Notes under the pieces: generated by a model
Database searches by the model: none
Seen by the model: the letters and a program-made list of their open reading frames with translations, nothing else
Told to the model about the DNA's origin: nothing
Program-made: the position numbers and the translations under genes
NCBI GenBank assembly: GCA_038116375.1
Contig: JAYNUQ010000002.1
Coordinates: 26,766 to 90,765 of the forward strand
Origin: Candidatus Poseidoniales archaeon
GTDB taxonomy: Archaea; Thermoplasmatota; Poseidoniia; Poseidoniales; Poseidoniaceae
DNA length: 64,000 nt
Direction: 5' to 3'
Shown: positions 2,170 through 26,974 of the stretch, piece by piece
Layout of the letters: the number at the start of each line of letters is the position of its first letter
Numbering within the stretch: position 1 is the first letter of the stretch

Positions 2170-3153
2170 ATGGCAAAGGTTGCCGTCACCGACGGAATGG
2201 ACAAAAAAGCGGTTGCTCGCTTGAAAAAAGCGGGCCACGAGGTGGTCCTTGAGCACATCAGCGAAGACGCCTTGCTCGCTGGTGCTTTGGAATCTTTTGA
2301 TGCCATCATCGTTCGCAGTGCCACCAAGCTGACGGAAAAGGTCCTGAAGGCTTCCGGTGATCGCCTCAAAGTCATCGGTCGTGCGGGTGTGGGCGTTGAC
2401 AACATCGATTTGGAAACCGCTGGAAAGCGAGGCATCAAGGTCGTCAATGCGCCTCGAGCCAGCACGCAATCCGTGGTTGAGTTGACCCTCGGCCATCTCC
2501 TCGCCTCCATACGACATTTGCCAAGGGCTGACCGTTCTCTGCGGGACGGGAAGTGGGAAAAAAAAGCGATGAAGGGTTCTGAACTCTCTGGAAAAGCACT
2601 CGGTCTCATTGGATTTGGGCGAATTGCGCAATCCGTCGGGCGCATCGCTCAAGCGATTGGTATGGAACTTCACGCCTATGACCCCTACCTCCCTCCCAAG
2701 GTTGCGAAATCTCAGGGGACGCGCCTCCACAAATCGTTGGAATCTTTGTTCTCGAATTGCACCCATATTTCCATTCACTGCAATTTGACCGATGAAACCC
2801 ACCACCTCGTCAATGCTGAACGTCTTGCTGCCATGCCCCACATCGGAAAAGACGGTGCCCGGTGTGGGAGCCACATCATCAACTGCGCTCGCGGAGGTAT
2901 CGTAGACGAAGATGCGGTCGTTCAGGCGCTTGAATCCGGCGTGCTCACCTCCGCTGCTCTTGATGTCTTTGAAGTTGAACCGGTTGACCCTTCCCATCCG
3001 CTTCTCCAAATGGAGCATTTTCACGGAACACCGCACATCGGAGCCTCCACCGTTGAGGCGCAAGGCCGAGTCGGCATGGACATCGTCACCAACGTGATGG
3101 ACGCACTTCAGAACCGACCGTGTGATTTTATCGTCAACGGCTCATACTTGTAA
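2170..3153 (+). CDS. serA: D-3-phosphoglycerate dehydrogenase / D-isomer-specific 2-hydroxyacid dehydrogenase
   Basis: GRAGVGVDNIDLETAGKRGIKVVNAP and the Rossmann motif GLIGFGRIAQSVG are present, together with the catalytic-region pattern INCARGGIVDE...HIGAST. The 306-aa antisense ORF (2143..3063) is treated as a shadow ORF. Confidence 0.85.
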   Translation: MAKVAVTDGMDKKAVARLKKAGHEVVLEHISEDALLAGALESFDAIIVRSATKLTEKVLKASGDRLKVIGRAGVGVDNIDLETAGKRGIKVVNAPRASTQSVVELTLGHLLASIRHLPRADRSLRDGKWEKKAMKGSELSGKALGLIGFGRIAQSVGRIAQAIGMELHAYDPYLPPKVAKSQGTRLHKSLESLFSNCTHISIHCNLTDETHHLVNAERLAAMPHIGKDGARCGSHIINCARGGIVDEDAVVQALESGVLTSAALDVFEVEPVDPSHPLLQMEHFHGTPHIGASTVEAQGRVGMDIVTNVMDALQNRPCDFIVNGSYL

Positions 3154-3178: not shown

Positions 3179-3487
3179 ATGAATAAGCATCCCTTCCTTC
3201 TCGGGTTTCAATGCGTTATGGGTCGAAGTGTACCGCCATGGCGAACGCGAGTAGAACACGAATTGGAACACCTCATGCCGTATCGTCGGGCGTTGTCTTC
3301 TGCCGATCAAGCGGCGTTTGATGCACTGCTCAATGAAGTGCGACAGCGTCGTTCGGCAGGAGGTTTGCTGCCCGCATTGAACACATGGCAACCCATGGTG
3401 CTCAACATGTTGGTCGGATTGATGGCGCAGGTTTCACGGCTCACGGCACAAATAGAAGCACTCGAGGAACGGCGTCGTGATGATTGA
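3179..3487 (+). CDS. hypothetical small protein, translationally coupled to the family-B polymerase
   Basis: The ORF is about 100 aa (MNKHPF... or MGRSVPPW... from 3218) and ends in a helical C-terminus. Its stop (3485-3487) overlaps the polymerase start (GTG 3477 / ATG 3480). I recognise no family. Confidence 0.5.
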   Translation: MNKHPFLLGFQCVMGRSVPPWRTRVEHELEHLMPYRRALSSADQAAFDALLNEVRQRRSAGGLLPALNTWQPMVLNMLVGLMAQVSRLTAQIEALEERRRDD

Positions 3488-5969
3488 GGGGTGGCTGCTT
3501 GATGTTCATGAAAACGAGGCCAACACCGGCATGGTGGCCTGGGTGGTCGACCGCCACGGTGTTGCGCATCGGTGTGACGTTCCTTGGCAACCCACCCTTC
3601 ACGTCCACGCAACCCATGAGCAACTGGACCGTTTGGAACACTGGTTGATGCAACCAGAAATCCAACTGCGCTTCGGTATCGGCGATGTCCGAATGACACG
3701 TGCCCGCTTGGACTTGGAGGCGACGGGCCACGTTGACGTGCTGGAACTTGGGCTACATACGTATCAACACCTTCGAGGATTGGCTGAACACGTTGAAGCC
3801 AGAGGAGACTTTCATCGGTTCAAACTCTATTCGGTCGATGCGCACCTTGCTCAGCGTTTTTTGAACGAGAACAACTGCATTCCGTTCCAACGGGTTCGAT
3901 GGTCCAGTTCATCGCCACAAAGCATCGAGCCCTTGGAGGACGGCACCATGGATTCAGGCGTCTATCCACCGTTCCACGTTGTGCGCATGCGTTTCGAACA
4001 GGGGGTCGACTCGGCGCTTCCCTCGCTTGACGGCACCGTCGAGAGCATTCATTTGGACAGCGTTAACGAGCCGGGATTGGCACCGTTTTCAGCCCCGTTC
4101 TCGGTTACGCTCAAGCGTCAAGATTTTGCGTCCATGTCGGCCATGCTCATGGCACTTCAAGACGCTCTTGCATCCATGGACCCTGACATCCTGATGTCCG
4201 CAGGTGGCGATCAGCGTTGGTTTCCGTGGCTGGTTGAGCAGGCCACACTGCACGATGTTCCTCTTCAAATCGGACGTACATCGGACGTGCTCGCTCAGAC
4301 GACGCATCAGCGAACGATTCGTTCCTACGGCCAAACTCGCCATCGTCACGGTTCGTTCTTCCTCAAAGGGCGTCTTCACCTTGACATCAAGAACAGTTTC
4401 ATCGTCAACGAAGGCGGTCTTGCCGGTTTGTTTGAACTGGCCCAACACTCGCGACAATCGGCACAAATCATCTCGCGACTTTCGCCAGGTTCGGTCATCA
4501 GCGCCATACAAATGCGGGTGGCCATGGACGACGGCGTGCTCGTGCCGTGGAAAAAAAATCGGCCCGAAGACACGAAATCTGCTCTTGATTTGCTTCATGC
4601 CGACCGAGGGGGCCTCTACCTTGATAGCCGACCTGGCGTCCATGCCTCGGTGATTGAACTCGATTTTGCAAGTCTTTTCCCGAGCATCATCGCCACCCGC
4701 AACATCTCTCCAGAGACCCTGAATTGCCCGTGTTGTCAACCCGTAGCAAAAGGGGATTTACGAGGTGTGGTCCCGTTGCATCCTGACGAAGCTGCTCAAG
4801 AATTTCGAGAACGTGCGGTGCTGTCGACCTTCGGTCACGGGTTGTTCCCCCTTTCACATGAAAAGGCGCTTTCTGTTCCAGGCCTCAACATGCACACCTG
4901 TGGGCGAACGCACGGATTTCTCGGTCGCGTGGTGGCCCCCATCATCGAACGGCGACGTGAACTGAAGCATCAACGTCAGCACAAAGGCGACGCCTTTGAC
5001 CTGCGACAGAATGCACTCAAATGGCTTCTCGTGACGTGTTTTGGATACACGGGCTACCGCAATGCTCGTTTTGGACGTATCGAGGCTCACGAAGCGATTT
5101 GTGCGTGGTCTCGAGACCTCTTGTTGACCACCATTGAAGAAGCCCAAAAAGACGGATGGAACGTTCTCCACGCCATCGTTGACTGCGTTTGGCTCTCTGA
5201 CACAGAAGGGCGTTCAAGAGACCAACAGCGCAGCGATGCTGAGGCGTTTGCCAAACGCGTAACGAAGCAGGTTGGTATACCTCTTGAATTCGAGGCGCAC
5301 TACGATTTCATCGCCTTTTTGCCGAGCCGAATGCACGGTTCAGGTTCGCTCACAAAATACTGGGCCTACGCCGAAGGCGAATTCAAAGTTCGAGGCATCG
5401 AGTTGCGCCAGCATTCCACGCCCCGATGGGTACGTGAACTTCAGCAAAGGGGATTGGAACTGTTGGCCGAAGGTGAGCGCATCGACGGACGTCCTTCCCT
5501 TCGGGCACAGCGCTCGGTCTTGGCCCATTACCGAGGCGAACTTCAGCGCTTGAACAGGAACGAAGTTCCGTTGTCAGACCTCGTCACGACACGACGAACG
5601 ACCCGGTCCATTGAGGACTATCGAGTTCGGAATTTGACCTACGGGGCTTTGATGCGCGCACACGGTCTCGGCTATGAGGTCCCTCCAGGTGGAAAGGTCC
5701 GCTATGCGGTCGTGAACCGCTCAGCTACCGATCCGATGGAACGTGTTTTGCTGGCCGAGGAAATTGAGACCTTGGGTCATCAGCACGCTGGTTGTCCTTT
5801 GCATAATGGAGAACTTGCTGAGCGAGCCATTTGGGCGCTGCTCGCTCCGTTCGGGTGGACTTCAGAACGCCTTCGCCTTGACGGCCGACAACCGAGTCTT
5901 CTGGAGTTCATTCATCCCGGTGGCGCAGAACAAGAGCCCCAACGTTTGGAGGAATCGCTTCACGATTGA
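3477..5969 (+). CDS. family-B DNA polymerase with degenerate exonuclease motifs (PolB2-like)
   Basis: Motif A is DFASLFPSIIATRNISPETL. Motif B is LKWLLVTCFGYTGYRNARFG. The KxY region is LTKYWAY..VRGIELRQH. The N-terminus (LLDV...) is typical of archaeal PolB. The positions equivalent to ExoI, ExoII and ExoIII read FSVTL, GGDQRWFPWL and HSRQS. Motif C reads HAIVDC rather than YxDTD. Confidence 0.85.
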   Translation: MMIEGWLLDVHENEANTGMVAWVVDRHGVAHRCDVPWQPTLHVHATHEQLDRLEHWLMQPEIQLRFGIGDVRMTRARLDLEATGHVDVLELGLHTYQHLRGLAEHVEARGDFHRFKLYSVDAHLAQRFLNENNCIPFQRVRWSSSSPQSIEPLEDGTMDSGVYPPFHVVRMRFEQGVDSALPSLDGTVESIHLDSVNEPGLAPFSAPFSVTLKRQDFASMSAMLMALQDALASMDPDILMSAGGDQRWFPWLVEQATLHDVPLQIGRTSDVLAQTTHQRTIRSYGQTRHRHGSFFLKGRLHLDIKNSFIVNEGGLAGLFELAQHSRQSAQIISRLSPGSVISAIQMRVAMDDGVLVPWKKNRPEDTKSALDLLHADRGGLYLDSRPGVHASVIELDFASLFPSIIATRNISPETLNCPCCQPVAKGDLRGVVPLHPDEAAQEFRERAVLSTFGHGLFPLSHEKALSVPGLNMHTCGRTHGFLGRVVAPIIERRRELKHQRQHKGDAFDLRQNALKWLLVTCFGYTGYRNARFGRIEAHEAICAWSRDLLLTTIEEAQKDGWNVLHAIVDCVWLSDTEGRSRDQQRSDAEAFAKRVTKQVGIPLEFEAHYDFIAFLPSRMHGSGSLTKYWAYAEGEFKVRGIELRQHSTPRWVRELQQRGLELLAEGERIDGRPSLRAQRSVLAHYRGELQRLNRNEVPLSDLVTTRRTTRSIEDYRVRNLTYGALMRAHGLGYEVPPGGKVRYAVVNRSATDPMERVLLAEEIETLGHQHAGCPLHNGELAERAIWALLAPFGWTSERLRLDGRQPSLLEFIHPGGAEQEPQRLEESLHD

Positions 5970-6693
5970 GGCGCCTTCTGGTGAGATGAAAACGCATTTG
6001 CGGGTCGATTTGGAGCGGCATCCATGGGCCTCTCGCACCGGATTTACGATGCTTGAGATGCAAAGTTCTCTGGCGTCGTCTTCCGCGCCATGCTCCTTCA
6101 AGGTGATTCTGTGCGTGCCGGTGAAGGTGGTGCAGCAGTCGTGAATCGGTGTGCGGTGAATGCTCCGTTCCCGTGATGGCAATGACGGCTGCATGGTGCT
6201 GTTCTGCAAGTTGGCGTAAAATGTGCACGTGTCGCTTCAGAAGCGTTCTGGATTCCAGGCGTGAAACGGCATCATCACCGTGCATGGCCATCAGGCCGTC
6301 GAGCACCACCATCGGTGAACGGGTGATGGCGAGTTCATGCGGCAGTCGCTCAATTTGGCGGTCGAGTTGGTGCAACGTGAATCCCCGACTCAGGTACAAG
6401 CGACCAAGGCAGGCTTCCACATCACCTCCCAGCGCCTCCAGAAGGGGAATGAATCGCGAGGGGTCAATTCGACAGGCACCGTCCACCCAGTGAACAACTT
6501 CACCCTGAACCAGTGCATGGGCGACCCAATGCTCGGCCACGCATCGCATGCTCTTTCCCGCCCGTCCAGGCCCGCTCAGTTGGTAGAGTTGGCCACGAGC
6601 GGGCTGAATATGCAGCGGGTCAATCCCTTGGCGCCGACGAATCAATCCTCGGGTGATGGTGCTGGCCGCCTTGATTGGTCTCATGTGAATCAT
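5908..6693 (-). CDS. RecA-fold P-loop ATPase (RadB / KaiC / ImuA-like)
   Basis: Walker A is LSGPGRAGKS and the Walker B-like segment is SPMVVLDGL, in a RecA/RadB-like arrangement (G..Y.LSGP..GKS...VHWVDGA....R). I chose the start MIHMRP at 6693. The longer ORF-track start at 6939 would run across the dinB start. Confidence 0.65.
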   Translation of the reverse strand: MIHMRPIKAASTITRGLIRRRQGIDPLHIQPARGQLYQLSGPGRAGKSMRCVAEHWVAHALVQGEVVHWVDGACRIDPSRFIPLLEALGGDVEACLGRLYLSRGFTLHQLDRQIERLPHELAITRSPMVVLDGLMAMHGDDAVSRLESRTLLKRHVHILRQLAEQHHAAVIAITGTEHSPHTDSRLLHHLHRHAQNHLEGAWRGRRRQRTLHLKHRKSGARGPWMPLQIDPQMRFHLTRRRLNREAIPPNVGALVLRHRDE

Positions 6694-6810: not shown

Positions 6811-7923
6811 ATGGCCGAACCGCTCGGGCCGAGAATTTTGATTCACTGTGATTTGGATGCCTTTTTTGCTGCGGTTGAAACCATCCACCACGGATTTGAT
6901 GAAACCGTGCCGTTGATCATTGGTTCGGACCCCAAACAAGGCCGCGGACGTGGAATTGTATCAACGTGCAATTATGCAGCCCGGGCCTATGGGATTCGCT
7001 CTGCCATGCCCGTATCTGAAGCCTGGCGTCGTTGCCCAGCAGCTCCGTTTGGACCCGCCATCTACATCCGAGGAACGCGAGGGCTGTACAGCAGAGCAAG
7101 TCGAAAAGTAATGGCGTGCTTGCAGAATTCTGCGAACCTGTTTGAAAAAGCAAGCATCGACGAAGCGTATCTTGATGTGACCGAGAATGTCGGTGGGGAT
7201 TGGGATGCCGCTCTCGCTCTTGCGAAGCACTTGCAGCAACAAATCGTTGAGGAGGTCAACCTCACCGCTTCCTTTGGTATTGGACCCACCCGCTTGGTGG
7301 CGAAAATGGCCAGCGAGGTGAACAAGCCCAACGGCATTTTCAGGGTGATGCCCGATGAGGTGAATGCGTTCTTTGAGGGTCGCTCGCTGCGTGCCATACC
7401 GGGCATCGGGCCCAAACGAGCGACTCAACTCGCTGAATGGGGCTACACCACTGCAGACGACCTCTATGCCTTGGGAGAACTTTCGTTGGCGAGCCTTGCT
7501 GGTGAACGATTCGCGGCGTGGTTCATGCGGGTCGTTGACGGTGAGAGCAGCAGCGTCGTTAGTCCACTTCGCAGCAGAAAATCCATTGGAAAAGAGCACA
7601 CCTTTGAGCGAGATGTAGCGAATCATGAAGTGGTCCTTGAACGTCTTGAACAACTGGTTGCTCTTGTCATGGAACGGGCGACGAACCTGGGGGTTTCCGG
7701 TCGATTGGCTGAAGTCAAAATTCGGTACACAGGATTTGAAACACACACTGCAGGCAGAAGCATTCCCGTCGCAATGGACGATGATGGGGTGTTCAAGCGT
7801 TTGGCCAACGGACTGTTTGCAACAAATATTCGCCCCGACAATCGGGTTCGCCTGATCGGGTTCCGACTTGGCCAACTGGAGGTGCCTCCTTCCCGACAAT
7901 CGACGCTGTTTGAGGAAGAATAG
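6811..7923 (+). CDS. dinB: Y-family DNA polymerase IV (DinB/Dpo4-like)
   Basis: ILIHCDLDAFFAAVE and the catalytic SIDEAYLDV motif are present, along with the FGIGPTRLVAKMAS and IPGIGPKRA helix-hairpin-helix regions. I prefer the ATG at 6811 (MAEPLGPRIL) over the upstream GTG at 6787. Confidence 0.9.
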   Translation: MAEPLGPRILIHCDLDAFFAAVETIHHGFDETVPLIIGSDPKQGRGRGIVSTCNYAARAYGIRSAMPVSEAWRRCPAAPFGPAIYIRGTRGLYSRASRKVMACLQNSANLFEKASIDEAYLDVTENVGGDWDAALALAKHLQQQIVEEVNLTASFGIGPTRLVAKMASEVNKPNGIFRVMPDEVNAFFEGRSLRAIPGIGPKRATQLAEWGYTTADDLYALGELSLASLAGERFAAWFMRVVDGESSSVVSPLRSRKSIGKEHTFERDVANHEVVLERLEQLVALVMERATNLGVSGRLAEVKIRYTGFETHTAGRSIPVAMDDDGVFKRLANGLFATNIRPDNRVRLIGFRLGQLEVPPSRQSTLFEEE

Positions 7924-7924
7924 C

Positions 7925-10426
7925 TCACTCGAGTTGGTGCATTCGGGTCAATGTTTCCTTGAATTCGAGGAGGCTATCGGGAACGGCAATGCCCGCAATT
8001 GGCTGGTTCAGTGAGACGCCCGCATCTTTCTTGGCCGCCCATGTTTTTCCATTGAATTCTTGCAGATCGTGTGAGAGCGAACACAGGCGTGTTCCTTCAT
8101 CCGTCCCGTGCGCCAACTCAGGAACCGGGGCGGACGGGAAGGCATCAACATCGACCGAGGATGAGCCGTATACGGTGCTTGAAATGTGGTGAGTAAAGAA
8201 CGGGCAAACGGGACTGAACGCCGCCATGAAATCCCTCACCATCCGGTGCAGTGTCCATGCCGCAGCCTCGTCTCCGTCGTACAATCTGGATTTGACCATC
8301 TCAAGGTAGTGGCTGGGAAGAAGACCCGTGCCGAAGGTTTTGAGGGCCTGCGTTGCCGTGTAGATGTCCAAATTGACCCACGCATGGTTGACGGTGTGCA
8401 TGGTGCCTTGGAATTCTGCTAAGACCCACTTGTCTTCTGGAGCAAGCGTTTCTGGGCAACGGTCCAAATCGTCTGGGACATCAAACTGCGACGCAAACCG
8501 AGCAACGTTGAAGAGTTTGGTCAGCACACCAAAGTACTTTTTCTCGATTTCTTCAGGATTGATGTGGAAATCGTCCCCAACTTGGGCATCGCATGCCTTC
8601 CACAGGCGAAAACACTCGCTGCCAATTTTATTGGCTCGAAGTTTGACTGAACCGTCTGGACCTTTCACTTGCCAGGAACCGGTTCGCCCACCTGCCCCGC
8701 ACTCCAAGACGGAGTCGGCGTCAATACCGTTGCCGAGTGACTTGCTCATTTTACGGCCCCACGGGTCCATGCCCAAACCGTCAATCCACACGTGCTGGAA
8801 TCCCGGTTGGTCCAGCACCAAAGTGGACTTCAAGAGCGTGTAATAGAGCCATGTTCGAACGATTTCCTTTCCTTGCGGGCGCAGTGCGGTCGGGAAGGCC
8901 TTTTCGAACACATCGGGGTGGTTGAGGTAACCGCTCACAAAGAGGTTGGAGTTTGAAGAATCCATCCACGTGTCAAACACTTTTTCCTCACCTTTCAACG
9001 ACCCAAGTTGCTCTGACAGTGCAGCAAAATCTCCAACGTCTTCCCGCGTTTCTCTGTTCAGCACGCGACTTCCTGCAGGGGGGGTATCTTTCCAGGGTTG
9101 GACGTAGGTTCCAGCGGGAGGGACAACAACCAACCGTTCGTCTTCGCTGTACCAGATTGGAATTTCTGTGTGGTACCATCGTCGGCGACTGATGGGCCAA
9201 TCGATGCTGATGTTGTCCATCCAGTCAAGCAGGAATTGTCGGTTCCGTACGGGGTGGAACGTGATGGATTCGATGTGCTCACGCATGCGGTCTTGGATGT
9301 GCGTTTGTCGGACATACCATTCTTTGAGAAGAATGATTTCCACTGGGTTCTTGCCACGCTCTGAAACGGGAATCTCTTGGTCGCGTTCAACGGCTTGGAT
9401 CAATCGACCCTGTTCCTCGAGAAGTTCGATGGCTTTTGCTCGTGCATCAACTACAGAGAGTCCGTGAAGCGGCCCAGCAATTTGCGTCATGTTGCCGTCA
9501 AGTCCGATGGCTTGGAAGGGTGCGAGGCCCAGTTCCCGGAACACGGCCACGTCGTTTTGGTCACCAAATGAACAGACCATCAGGACGCCGGTACCAAAAT
9601 CGGATTTGACGGAGGGGTGTTTCTGAACGGTGACGGTTTGAGACCGACCGTTGGTCGGCAGAGGCAGAGCGATTTCTTGGCCGACCAGATGTTTGTATCG
9701 CTCGTCGTCTGGATGGACCACCACGACTCCACAAGCACAGATGAGTTCCGGGCGTGTCGTGGAAATCACAAGATCGGTTCCGTCTTCACAGGTCCACCGG
9801 ACGTCAACGAGTTTTGTCTTTCGCGGCAACCGTTCAACTTCGGCATCGGCGATGGTTGTACCTTCAACAGGGTCGTAGATGTTGGGTCGGAGGTCTTCGA
9901 CGATGTCGCCTTTCTTGAACAGTTCAACGAAGATGGATTGCGTAACGCTTCTGTAATCTGGGGCATCGGTTAGGTACTCTCGTGAAAAATCGCACGAGAG
10001 TCCAACGCGCTTTGCGGTGTTTCGCATGGCTTGGGTAAAGGATTCAATGGTTGTTTCACAGAGTTTGAGAAACTCCTCTCGGTCGTAGGTTTTCATCTTC
10101 CTTTTTGTGTTCTTTTCAACGGTAAATTCGATGTTTATACCGTTCCTGTCCACGCCCCAAGGGAAGTACACTTCTTTGCCCAGTAAGCGCTGACTTCGGG
10201 CCAGAACATCGATCATCGAGTATTGAGCGACAGCACCAATGTGCCACGTTCCGGAGGGATAGGGCGGAGGCGTATCGATGACAAAGAATTCCTTCCCGCT
10301 CTCAGGATTGAAGCCGTAGCGGCCGCTGTAGGCTTGCTCGTCAGCGTAATGCGCTTCTTGGATGGTCTTTTCTAGGTCAATTGACCATCGTTTCTCGGGA
10401 AGTTTTGGGGCTGGCATGTGCCTCAC
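7925..10426 (-). CDS. valS: valine--tRNA ligase (class I aaRS)
   Basis: IDTPPPYPSGTWHIG lies at the HIGH position. The editing-domain pattern is STTRPELICACGVVVVHPDDERY. WPISRRRWYHTEIPIWY and KMSKSLGN are also present. The length of 833 aa fits archaeal ValRS. Confidence 0.75.
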   Translation of the reverse strand: MRHMPAPKLPEKRWSIDLEKTIQEAHYADEQAYSGRYGFNPESGKEFFVIDTPPPYPSGTWHIGAVAQYSMIDVLARSQRLLGKEVYFPWGVDRNGINIEFTVEKNTKRKMKTYDREEFLKLCETTIESFTQAMRNTAKRVGLSCDFSREYLTDAPDYRSVTQSIFVELFKKGDIVEDLRPNIYDPVEGTTIADAEVERLPRKTKLVDVRWTCEDGTDLVISTTRPELICACGVVVVHPDDERYKHLVGQEIALPLPTNGRSQTVTVQKHPSVKSDFGTGVLMVCSFGDQNDVAVFRELGLAPFQAIGLDGNMTQIAGPLHGLSVVDARAKAIELLEEQGRLIQAVERDQEIPVSERGKNPVEIILLKEWYVRQTHIQDRMREHIESITFHPVRNRQFLLDWMDNISIDWPISRRRWYHTEIPIWYSEDERLVVVPPAGTYVQPWKDTPPAGSRVLNRETREDVGDFAALSEQLGSLKGEEKVFDTWMDSSNSNLFVSGYLNHPDVFEKAFPTALRPQGKEIVRTWLYYTLLKSTLVLDQPGFQHVWIDGLGMDPWGRKMSKSLGNGIDADSVLECGAGGRTGSWQVKGPDGSVKLRANKIGSECFRLWKACDAQVGDDFHINPEEIEKKYFGVLTKLFNVARFASQFDVPDDLDRCPETLAPEDKWVLAEFQGTMHTVNHAWVNLDIYTATQALKTFGTGLLPSHYLEMVKSRLYDGDEAAAWTLHRMVRDFMAAFSPVCPFFTHHISSTVYGSSSVDVDAFPSAPVPELAHGTDEGTRLCSLSHDLQEFNGKTWAAKKDAGVSLNQPIAGIAVPDSLLEFKETLTRMHQLE

Positions 10427-25600: not shown

Positions 25601-26974
25601 ATGTTCGCAGAAGCCATCACAAGGCTCCCTCAGCGGCCACCCGAAACCACCGTGGAAGAATTTGCGCAACGTCAGGCTCGCCTTACCTCACAATTTCGCC
25701 AAGATGATGTTTTGATTTTAGCGTCGCCTTCCTTTGCCGTCCACTCGAACGACGTTGAATATCGATACCGTACTTCAAGCGATTTACTCTACCTCACTGG
25801 ATGGAGTGAGCCCGAATCCGTATTCGTTCTCCGCCACGACGGTAGCGATTGGCAATCGTGTCTGTTCGTTCAACCCAAGGACACCTTGAAGGAAATTTGG
25901 GAAGGTCGTCGCCCCGGAGTTGAAGGAGCCGTCGCATCCTTTGCTGTCGATGTTGCCTACAACAACGGAGACTTGGAGGATCACTTGCACGGATGGCTGA
26001 GCGACGCCCGCCGCGTCTTTCACCGGGGTGGCGTTAACTCGAAGATTGATGCCATGGTCGACCTTGCTGTTCGACGGCGAGATCGAGCCCGCCAGCACTT
26101 TGGAACGGGCCCAGTCGCAGTTGAGGACCCCTCAGCTTTGCTCGCAGAACTCCGCCTTCGAAAATCCTCATCGGAGATTGACCAAATGGTCTATGCGAGT
26201 AAAGTCGCTGCAATCGCTCATGAATTGGCCATGCGCCACAGTCGTGAGGGGGTAACAGAATACCAACTCCAATCCATCATTGAAGGCTTTTTTTCCTATG
26301 CTGGGGCCTCAGGTTGGTCGTATCCGTCCATCGTGGGCTGTGGTGAAAACGCAACCATCCTTCATTACACTACGAACCAGGACGAATGCGGCATTGACGA
26401 AGTGATTCTCATCGATGCAGGTGCGGAATTCCGGGGTTACGCAAGCGACATTACCCGTTCGTGGCCGATTTCTGGGGCATTTAGCGATGCCCAGCGCGAA
26501 ATTTACGAGATTGTACTGGATGCACAACTCGCAGCCATTGATGCATGTAAAGTGGGTATGCCCTACACGGCACCGCACGACGCCGCTCGAAGGGTGCTCG
26601 CTGAAGGATTGATTCGCCTCGGAGTCATCTCCCAAAGTATCGAAGAAGCCCTGGACATGGATTCGGGAGAACTCAAGAACTGGTACATGCACAACACCAG
26701 TCACTGGATTGGCCTTGATGTTCACGATGCTGGCGTTTACAAGCCCGGAGGGGAACCTCGCCTTTTGGAACCGGGTATGTGCCTCACCGTTGAACCTGGA
26801 CTCTATTTTGGTGCATGGCGCCCGGATGTTGACTGTCCAGAACGTTATGCAAACATTGGGATTCGGATTGAAGATGATGTCCTCATCACGGCCGATGGTC
26901 CTGTTGTCCTGACCGAAGACTGCCCAAAAACGGTCGAAGACATTGAACGCATCGTCGGTCAAGTCCTCAACTGA
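25601..26974 (+). CDS. pepP: Xaa-Pro aminopeptidase (M24B family)
   Basis: The metal-ligand pattern is IDAGAEFRGYASDITR, HWIGLDVHD, VEPGLY and GIRIEDDVLIT. An aminopeptidase-P-type N-terminal domain is also present. Confidence 0.85.
   Translation: MFAEAITRLPQRPPETTVEEFAQRQARLTSQFRQDDVLILASPSFAVHSNDVEYRYRTSSDLLYLTGWSEPESVFVLRHDGSDWQSCLFVQPKDTLKEIWEGRRPGVEGAVASFAVDVAYNNGDLEDHLHGWLSDARRVFHRGGVNSKIDAMVDLAVRRRDRARQHFGTGPVAVEDPSALLAELRLRKSSSEIDQMVYASKVAAIAHELAMRHSREGVTEYQLQSIIEGFFSYAGASGWSYPSIVGCGENATILHYTTNQDECGIDEVILIDAGAEFRGYASDITRSWPISGAFSDAQREIYEIVLDAQLAAIDACKVGMPYTAPHDAARRVLAEGLIRLGVISQSIEEALDMDSGELKNWYMHNTSHWIGLDVHDAGVYKPGGEPRLLEPGMCLTVEPGLYFGAWRPDVDCPERYANIGIRIEDDVLITADGPVVLTEDCPKTVEDIERIVGQVLN

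Follow-up and report, generated by a model that had tools for sequence, protein, structure and literature searches.

The 64,000-nucleotide (nt) stretch analysed here (the window; positions 26,766 to 90,765, forward strand, of contig JAYNUQ010000002.1, assembly GCA_038116375.1) comes from a Candidatus Poseidoniales archaeon whose genome is assembled into 1.9 Mb in 92 contigs. An open reading frame (ORF) on its forward strand, at 3477-5969, encodes a full-length family-B DNA polymerase of the PolB2 group. We consider it very probable that this enzyme is the catalytic subunit of a PolB2 mutasome and serves in damage tolerance, not as a replicase. The dead exonuclease and the single motif-C Asp of the protein are the already-known signature of PolB2, a family that was described in 2008, shown in 2020-2022 to be active in translesion extension and modelled as part of a mutasome in 2025.

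Family placement and polymerase motifs

The frame is open throughout and translates into 830 amino acids (aa) from the GTG at 3477, from which all PolB2 residues are numbered here (Table 1). In public gene models of identical or near-identical proteins the length is 829 aa, as expected if translation begins at the ATG at 3480. In a Pfam scan the product matched DNA_pol_B (PF00136, E = 3e-18) and not PF03104, whereas the canonical paralogue family does match PF03104. The polymerase half could be aligned with HMMER to the solved Thermococcales PolB structures (KOD, 9N and P. abyssi), and the PolB2 family profile matched P. abyssi PolB with E = 2e-112. The AlphaFold model (pLDDT 92.2, pTM 0.91) has the full-length B-family fold with N-terminal, exonuclease-like, palm, fingers and thumb regions, and its top Foldseek matches were Thermococcales PolB enzymes including 9N and KOD, with TM-scores of 0.69-0.76. 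The best NCBIfam models, NF004418 and NF004416, gave strong matches, yet the scores are under the curated cut-offs and therefore no equivalog name can be assigned from NCBIfam.

An exhaustive HMMER search yielded a family of 547 clusters at 50% identity with E values of 1e-30 or better. An alignment of 125 members is the basis of all column counts given below, and it was compared profile to profile, using hhalign, with an alignment of the canonical PolB family of the same genome. Close homologues are labelled Poseidonia or Poseidoniales (Marine Group II, MGII, archaea). Public records name the homologues "DNA polymerase domain-containing protein", "DNA polymerase I", "DNA polymerase elongation subunit (family B)" or "hypothetical protein", and none of them PolB2; the record of one homologue is assigned to Woesearchaeota.

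Motif C of the protein, HAIVDC, aligned on the Y-S/I-D-T-D-G of KOD, 9N and P. abyssi PolB both in HMMER pairwise alignments and in the 125-sequence profile. The Tyr is replaced by His565 and the first Asp by Ile567, while the second Asp is kept as D569. An earlier reading by a model that had only the DNA letters and their translations (the sequence-only reading) had likewise seen the second Asp only. Across the family, His occupies position 565 in 123/125 members, position 567 is Ile in 95 and Leu in 20 and Asp in none, and D569 is present in all 125, which gives the pattern [VIL][VIL]-H-[GA]-[IL]-[VT]-D-[SC]. A DTD string occurs nowhere in the whole protein. Motif A is intact, as had also been claimed, and its metal ligand D396 is invariant (125/125). 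At the steric-gate position of this motif, residue 401 (nt 4677-4679), this lineage has Phe, and 106 of the 125 relatives have Tyr.

Motif B had been called intact too. This is right for Lys515, which is found in 124/125 relatives, and wrong for the Asn and the Tyr: the canonical K-x3-N-S-x-Y-G has become K-W-L-L-V-T-C-F-G in the window protein, with Val519 for Asn and Phe522 for Tyr, and both residues are lost family-wide. The lost Tyr is presumably the equivalent of RB69 Tyr567, a minor-groove sensor. The family-wide loss of Asn and Tyr is consistent with a relaxed checking of the primer terminus.

PolB2 was originally defined as an "inactivated" PolB family linked to a ~90-aa arCOG07300 protein and an inactivated RadA (Rogozin 2008, PMC2527604; Makarova 2014, PMC4104785). 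On that hypothesis the window protein would be a catalytically dead homologue serving only as a structural or regulatory subunit. The interpretation in these two papers speaks for it, as does the replacement of Tyr and the first Asp in motif C, of Asn and Tyr in motif B and of every catalytic residue of the exonuclease, but we regard it as improbable. Among 125 diverse relatives hardly any departs from the two metal-binding Asp residues and the motif-B Lys, a degree of conservation that would be unexpected for a purely structural protein. In comparison with the closest relative (dS 0.69), dN/dS was 0.08 overall, 0.06 in the polymerase domain, which is thus the most constrained part, and 0.17 in the exonuclease-like domain. 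These values indicate strong purifying selection on the gene, with the exonuclease-like domain more relaxed but still constrained as a scaffold. The near-invariant metal ligands and motif-B Lys and the low dN/dS argue for an active polymerase. Moreover, the Sulfolobus PolB2 (Dpo2), which has the same IxD motif, polymerizes DNA robustly with undetectable 3'-5' exonuclease; it inserts poorly opposite lesions and efficiently extends mismatched and lesion-paired termini (PMC8764526). Mutagenesis induced by damage also depends on Dpo2 (PMC7390963, cited through PMC11791011). These activities, and inducibility by damage, are known only from the Sulfolobus enzymes (PMC8764526, PMC7390963).

A loop specific to PolB2 precedes motif A. 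Its D376 is found in 125/125 relatives, position 377 is Arg in 76 and Lys in 47, and the Gly-Gly that follows is invariant. This D(K/R) motif has been proposed to contact the arm of PPB2, the small partner protein (PMC11791011, section 3.3.2). An older hypothesis, in which the Asp of the D(K/R) motif substitutes for the missing motif-C Asp, was withdrawn by its own authors after modelling (PMC11791011, section 3.3.2). In the first part of the loop E364 is kept in 124/125 relatives and position 366 is Phe in 76, Pro in 15 and Thr in 9. The window sequence EDTKSA, E364-A369 (nt 4566-4583), corresponds to the FxxA-like family segment E-x-F-K-[TS]-A, and the close Poseidoniales relatives that were read directly are among the 9/125 sequences with Thr for Phe. 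PMC11791011 places the contact of PolB2 with iRadA, the RadA-like partner, just before the D(K/R) motif and proposes a binding like that between Rad51 subunits. The E-x-F-K-x-A segment is presumably this contact region.

Four Cys residues after motif A are conserved at 94-99% (C417 in 123/125, C419 in 120/125, C420 in 117/125 and C475 in 124/125). This CxCC...C cluster could be a zinc site or form disulfides; we take it to correspond in place to a disulfide of Thermococcales PolB. It flanks an insertion that occurs in only ~10% of the family, the close Poseidoniales relatives read directly among them, and that is modelled as a helix with lower confidence; pLDDT is lower in the Cys-cluster region. 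PMC11791011, the one paper searched for the cluster, does not mention it. Near the C-terminus is a PIP-box-like motif that close relatives keep as Q-x-S-L-L-x-F; such a pattern lies within the last 45 aa of only 8/125 family members.

Table 1. Features of the PolB2 gene and its neighbours, with positions counted from the first nucleotide of the window
Feature	Position (nt)	Strand	Remarks
PolB2 catalytic subunit	3477-5969	+	830 aa from GTG 3477, or 829 aa from ATG 3480
ExoI-equivalent strand, M171-R-F-E-Q175	3987-4001	+	canonical Asp position is Arg172; Glu174 present
ExoII equivalent, GGDQRWFPWL, residues 243-252	4203-4232	+	catalytic Asp position is Trp248
ExoIII equivalent, FIVNE, residues 308-312	4398-4412	+	Tyr in 32-residue deletion; Asp position is Glu312 (hhalign)
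PolB2-specific loop, E364-D-T-K-S-A369 ... D376-R377-G-G	4566-4613	+	before motif A; column counts
Motif A, DFASLFPS, residues 396-403	4662-4685	+	D396 is the metal ligand; family profile alignment
Cys cluster, C417-x-C419-C420 ... C475	4725-4901 (4725-4736; 4899-4901)	+	flanks the ~40-aa insertion
~40-residue insertion, residues 424-463	4746-4865	+	between CxCC and the fourth Cys
Motif B, KWLLVTCFGYTGY	5019-5057	+	Lys515 retained; canonical Asn is Val519, canonical Tyr is Phe522
Motif C, HAIVDC, residues 565-570	5169-5186	+	H565-A-I567-V-D569-C
PIP-box-like Q805-P-S-L-L-E-F811	5889-5909	+	near the C-terminus; candidate PCNA-binding motif
D-2-hydroxyacid (phosphoglycerate-type) dehydrogenase	2170-3153	+	flanking housekeeping gene
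PPB2 (arCOG07300-type small accessory protein), 89 aa	3218-3487	+	starts MGRSVPPWRTR
RadA/Rad51-core paralogue (iRadA position), ~258-261 aa	5908-6693	-	convergent with PolB2
Walker A, GPGRAGKS	6550-6573	-	RadA-like gene
Walker B-like, MVVLDG	6295-6312	-	RadA-like gene
Y-family DNA polymerase (DinB/Dpo4 type)	6811-7923	+	Pfam IMS, IMS_C, HhH; divergent from the iRadA gene
Class-I aminoacyl-tRNA synthetase	7925-10426	-	flanking housekeeping gene

The exonuclease-like domain and the other replicases of the genome

The exonuclease-like domain is kept but decayed, and judging from the alignments its catalytic residues are absent. Using hhalign, the FDLET of the genome's canonical PolB family aligned on M171-R172-F173-E174-Q175, which forms a strand (E168-175) in the AlphaFold model. 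The usual P-P-[LF] lead-in stands directly before MRFEQ and reads PPLK or PPLR in other family members. Glu174, the acidic residue left in the segment, is without conservation across the family. HMMER alignment with P. abyssi PolB had put ExoI ~20 residues upstream, near 148-155, in a gappy stretch of low confidence; the placement at 171-175 is preferred because of the conserved P-P-L-[KR] lead-in and the modelled strand. There is no DxE at ExoI under either placement.

For ExoII, HMMER, the profile and hhalign all aligned GGDQRWFPWL with NGDNFDFxYL, and the catalytic position 248 is Leu in 56, Ile in 24, Val in 12 and Asp in 8 relatives. At the ExoIII Asp position, 312, the family has Glu in 87 sequences and Asp in 13. 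D-x-E strings occur in the window protein only at residues 79, 575 and 587 and at none of the ExoI, ExoII or ExoIII positions. A complete set of exonuclease catalytic residues is found in none of the 125 aligned relatives. Because the pattern of defects is conserved in these relatives, it is not due to chance.

The sequence-only reading had reported all three exonuclease motifs as substituted, and they are, with Arg172, Trp248, a deleted Tyr and Glu312 at the catalytic positions. Two of the three motifs had, however, been put in the wrong place. The segment FSVTL (208-212), taken as ExoI, is a short strand before helix A (E209-213 in the AlphaFold model), and HSRQS (324-328), taken as ExoIII, aligns with KOD 333-351, which comes after ExoIII. 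The assignment of GGDQRWFPWL to ExoII, with Trp248 at the Asp, was right, but its coordinates of 4202-4231 were one base out of frame and should read 4203-4232; those for FSVTL, motif A and motif C were exact. Canonical DxE and DTD residues were also sought elsewhere in the protein, and none stands at the ExoI-III or motif-C positions.

The genome encodes a second PolB (P0122) with FSFDLET, YNIDNFDLPRL, YCIRDAELP, DFKSMYPS, KILMNSFYG and YSDTDS. It has the intact ExoI DxE, ExoII NxxxFD, ExoIII YxxxD and motif-C DTD that the window PolB2 lacks at these motifs, and the two enzymes share 23% identity across the polymerase domain. With canonical PolB (PolB3: KOD, 9N, Pfu, P. abyssi and P0122) the window protein has in common the fold, motif A, the motif-B Lys, the second motif-C Asp, the [KR]-Y motif and the N-terminal domain. 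It departs from the canonical FDxET, NxDNFD, YxxxD, KxxxNSxYG and YxDTD in that it has no exonuclease catalytic residues, carries Val and Phe for the Asn and Tyr of motif B, and carries His and Ile for the Tyr and first Asp of motif C.

In addition to the canonical PolB, the DP2 subunit of PolD was found in the genome. With a canonical PolB and PolD in the genome, the window PolB2 is therefore not the replicase. A role as a replicative polymerase, sole or second, that has merely lost its proofreading would fit the full-length B-family fold and the possible PIP box, but it is hardly credible given that the canonical PolB has intact exonuclease and DTD motifs and that PolB2 is linked to PPB2, iRadA and DinB and not to replication genes. 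Its distribution points the same way. A PolB2 match (query P0001) was obtained in just 71 of 151 sampled Poseidoniales genomes and in 28 of the 58 of high quality, and essentiality is thus unlikely, though absence from incomplete genomes is no proof. All 20 genomes of the window's own genus had a match, and the two main families had 52/74 and 18/74. Such patchiness agrees with what has been reported for the group. The PolB2 matches of four genomes (G046, G150, G118 and G009) contain 1-2 in-frame stops (TGA or TAG) and may be pseudogenes or assembly errors.

All in all, the earlier prediction of an enzyme that has no proofreading, is probably still competent and is specialised, not replicative, is supported by D396 and D569 (125/125), K515 (124/125), the dN/dS values, the other replicases and, by analogy, the experiments on Sulfolobus PolB2 (PMC8764526, PMC11791011). 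The sequence-only reading thus came to the right functional interpretation, but it did not recognize that the family had already been described.

The PPB2-PolB2-iRadA locus

The small ORF directly upstream of PolB2 encodes an arCOG07300-type protein, PPB2, and its TGA stop overlaps the PolB2 ATG by 8 nt (3480-3487). A jackhmmer search found a homologous small ORF, with an N-terminus of MGR[ST]V, directly upstream of PolB2 in most related loci. On the opposite strand follows a paralogue of the RadA/Rad51 core. Its Pfam Rad51 match is at threshold (22.9 bits), its family profile matched P. furiosus RadA with E = 6e-16, and its model (pLDDT 84.6) retrieved Rad51, DMC1 and RadA in Foldseek. The protein has no N-terminal domain, and the genuine RadA of the genome is encoded on another contig. 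In 70 related loci an orthologue of the RadA-like gene adjoins PolB2. In the window these two convergent genes share 62 nt at their 3' ends (5908-5969). ORF coordinates give a convergent overlap of ~20-180 nt in most related Poseidoniales-type loci.

A total of 80 related loci were examined by ORF extraction and jackhmmer. In L009-L045 plus L049, nearly all of which are labelled Poseidoniales or MGII, the arrangement PPB2 -> PolB2 -> <- iRadA is present in every one of the 34 complete loci. The remaining loci (L046-L048 and L050 onward) are mostly from other Thermoplasmatota, with a few from other archaea and bacteria; iRadA, where found in these, is upstream and on the strand of PolB2, usually as iRadA -> PPB2 -> PolB2.

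The convergent arrangement also bears on whether the polymerase belongs to a mobile element (casposon, provirus or plasmid) and not to the chromosomal repair genes. In favour of this are the frequency of B-family polymerases in the mobile elements of archaea, the patchy distribution of PolB2 and the one transfer to bacteria that has been reported (PMC11791011). Nevertheless, such an origin appears very unlikely, since PPB2 -> PolB2 -> <- iRadA is kept in loci labelled Poseidoniaceae and Thalassarchaeaceae, all 20 genomes of the window's genus gave a PolB2 match, the neighbours are housekeeping genes (a 2-hydroxyacid dehydrogenase and an aminoacyl-tRNA synthetase), and the window is of uniform GC content. 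The scan of the neighbouring ORFs revealed no cas1, integrase or terminal-protein features.

PMC11791011 (Timinskas 2025) describes IID in the PolB2 of S. islandicus, the D(K/R) motif and an N-terminal MGRT arm of PPB2, and models a PolB2-(PPB2)3-iRadA heteropentamer. The window module agrees with that of Sulfolobus in its gene order PPB2-PolB2-iRadA, the MGR[ST] arm of PPB2 and a RadA-like partner without the N-terminal domain. Like S. islandicus and Saccharolobus solfataricus PolB2 (Dpo2), the window PolB2 has Ile for the first motif-C Asp (IVD here, IID in S. islandicus), and it shares with Sulfolobus PolB2 the replaced motif-C Tyr, the missing exonuclease catalytic residues and the invariant D(K/R)GG. 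The exonuclease domain of S. islandicus PolB2 is described as strongly decayed, whereas the window protein is much longer, at 830 aa, with a largely complete and well-folded domain. Other differences from Sulfolobus are Thr for Phe in the E-x-F-K-x-A segment, the ~40-aa lineage-specific insertion after CxCC, the convergent and overlapping position of iRadA on the opposite strand, and its retained GxxxxGKS P-loop.

Supplementary data file 2 of PMC11791011 assigns operons of "uncultured Candidatus Poseidoniales archaeon" and "Poseidonia sp." to group "3b (PPB2-PolB2-iRadA)"; there the operon of Sulfolobus belongs to 3a. The window locus has the same three genes, gene order and genus label as these 3b entries and is evidently a further example of them. 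The accessions of close PolB2 relatives were not found in the part of that supplement searched.

The published description calls iRadA ATPase-dead (PMC11791011). The window copy has not lost its ATPase residues: Walker A is intact and a Walker B-like VVLDG is present. Part of the Poseidoniaceae-labelled loci also have an intact Walker A and the Walker B-like VVLDG. In L013-L015 and L028 (labelled Poseidonia, Poseidoniaceae or Methanobacteriota) the Walker A Lys is Ala, Ser, Gln or Arg. A 4-residue deletion in the P-loop and a change of the Walker B Asp to Ser are found in L029-L036, L040, L044 and L049 (Poseidoniales loci, one labelled Thalassarchaeaceae), and the same deletion and Walker B Ser occur in other Thermoplasmatota and in bacteria. 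On these sequences the RadA-like partner of the Poseidonia lineage may represent an earlier stage of decay or may still be an active ATPase.

Next to the RadA-like gene is a divergent gene for a Y-family polymerase of the DinB/Dpo4 type. A single IMS match was obtained in the genome, so this DinB is the only Y-family polymerase found. A DinB gene stands downstream of the PolB2 module in 16 related loci as well (L009-L017, L025-L028, L037, L041 and L042). This adjacency suggests an inserter/extender pair.

A proposed role in damage tolerance

Taking PolB2 as the catalytic subunit of a mutasome, we propose the following mechanism. PPB2 and PolB2 would be translated from one message, because the two genes overlap by 8 nt. 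PolB2 would form a complex with a trimer of PPB2 and with the RadA-like protein, whose gene lies convergently downstream, and might itself be recruited to PCNA by its C-terminal Q-x-x-L-x-x-F motif. Synthesis would proceed via Asp396 of motif A, Asp569, the second motif-C Asp, and Lys515; Ile in place of the first motif-C Asp is the normal state of the family and would not abolish synthesis. The exonuclease domain would act as a structural scaffold without catalytic residues, hence without proofreading. By analogy with Sulfolobus Dpo2, the enzyme might take over once a nucleotide has been inserted by another polymerase and extend primer ends that are mismatched or paired with a lesion; the adjacent Y-family DinB would be a natural candidate for the inserter. 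The sequences and models show to which family the enzyme belongs, the state and conservation of its motifs, the selection on the gene, the fold, the gene linkage and the other replicases of the genome. That the enzyme is active, forms the complex, binds PCNA, divides the labour with an inserter and is induced by damage, we infer.

Several points weigh against this interpretation. Membership in PolB2 rests on published signatures, on the operon partners and on the published listing of Poseidoniales operons. Activity of the Poseidoniales enzyme is extrapolated from Sulfolobus enzymes that share only the family signature. With Thr for Phe in the presumed iRadA-binding segment, the contact with the RadA-like partner may differ. 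As the iRadA gene is on the opposite strand, co-expression of the three parts is not guaranteed.

The proposed mutasome has functional analogues in other domains. E. coli Pol V (UmuD'2C-RecA-ATP) is a specialist without proofreading that works with a RecA/Rad51-family protein, and eukaryotic Pol zeta is a B-family extender without proofreading that acts after a Y-family inserter. Pol V is, however, a Y-family enzyme, and the accessory subunits of Pol zeta are different. Homology of the accessory proteins is not implied.

The analogy with Pol V also leads to a more speculative suggestion. Unlike the inactivated iRadA, the RadA-like partner of the Poseidonia lineage might have a working P-loop ATPase, in which case the mutasome could be regulated by ATP, as with RecA-ATP in Pol V, and coupled to the only Y-family polymerase of the genome. 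We hold this to be rather unlikely. If true, the locus would be a two-polymerase inserter/extender island.

For annotation, the homologues could be labelled PolB2 and the small upstream ORF PPB2. The Poseidonia genomes sampled stem from sunlit surface water and possess a complete damage-tolerance locus with both a B-family and a Y-family polymerase.

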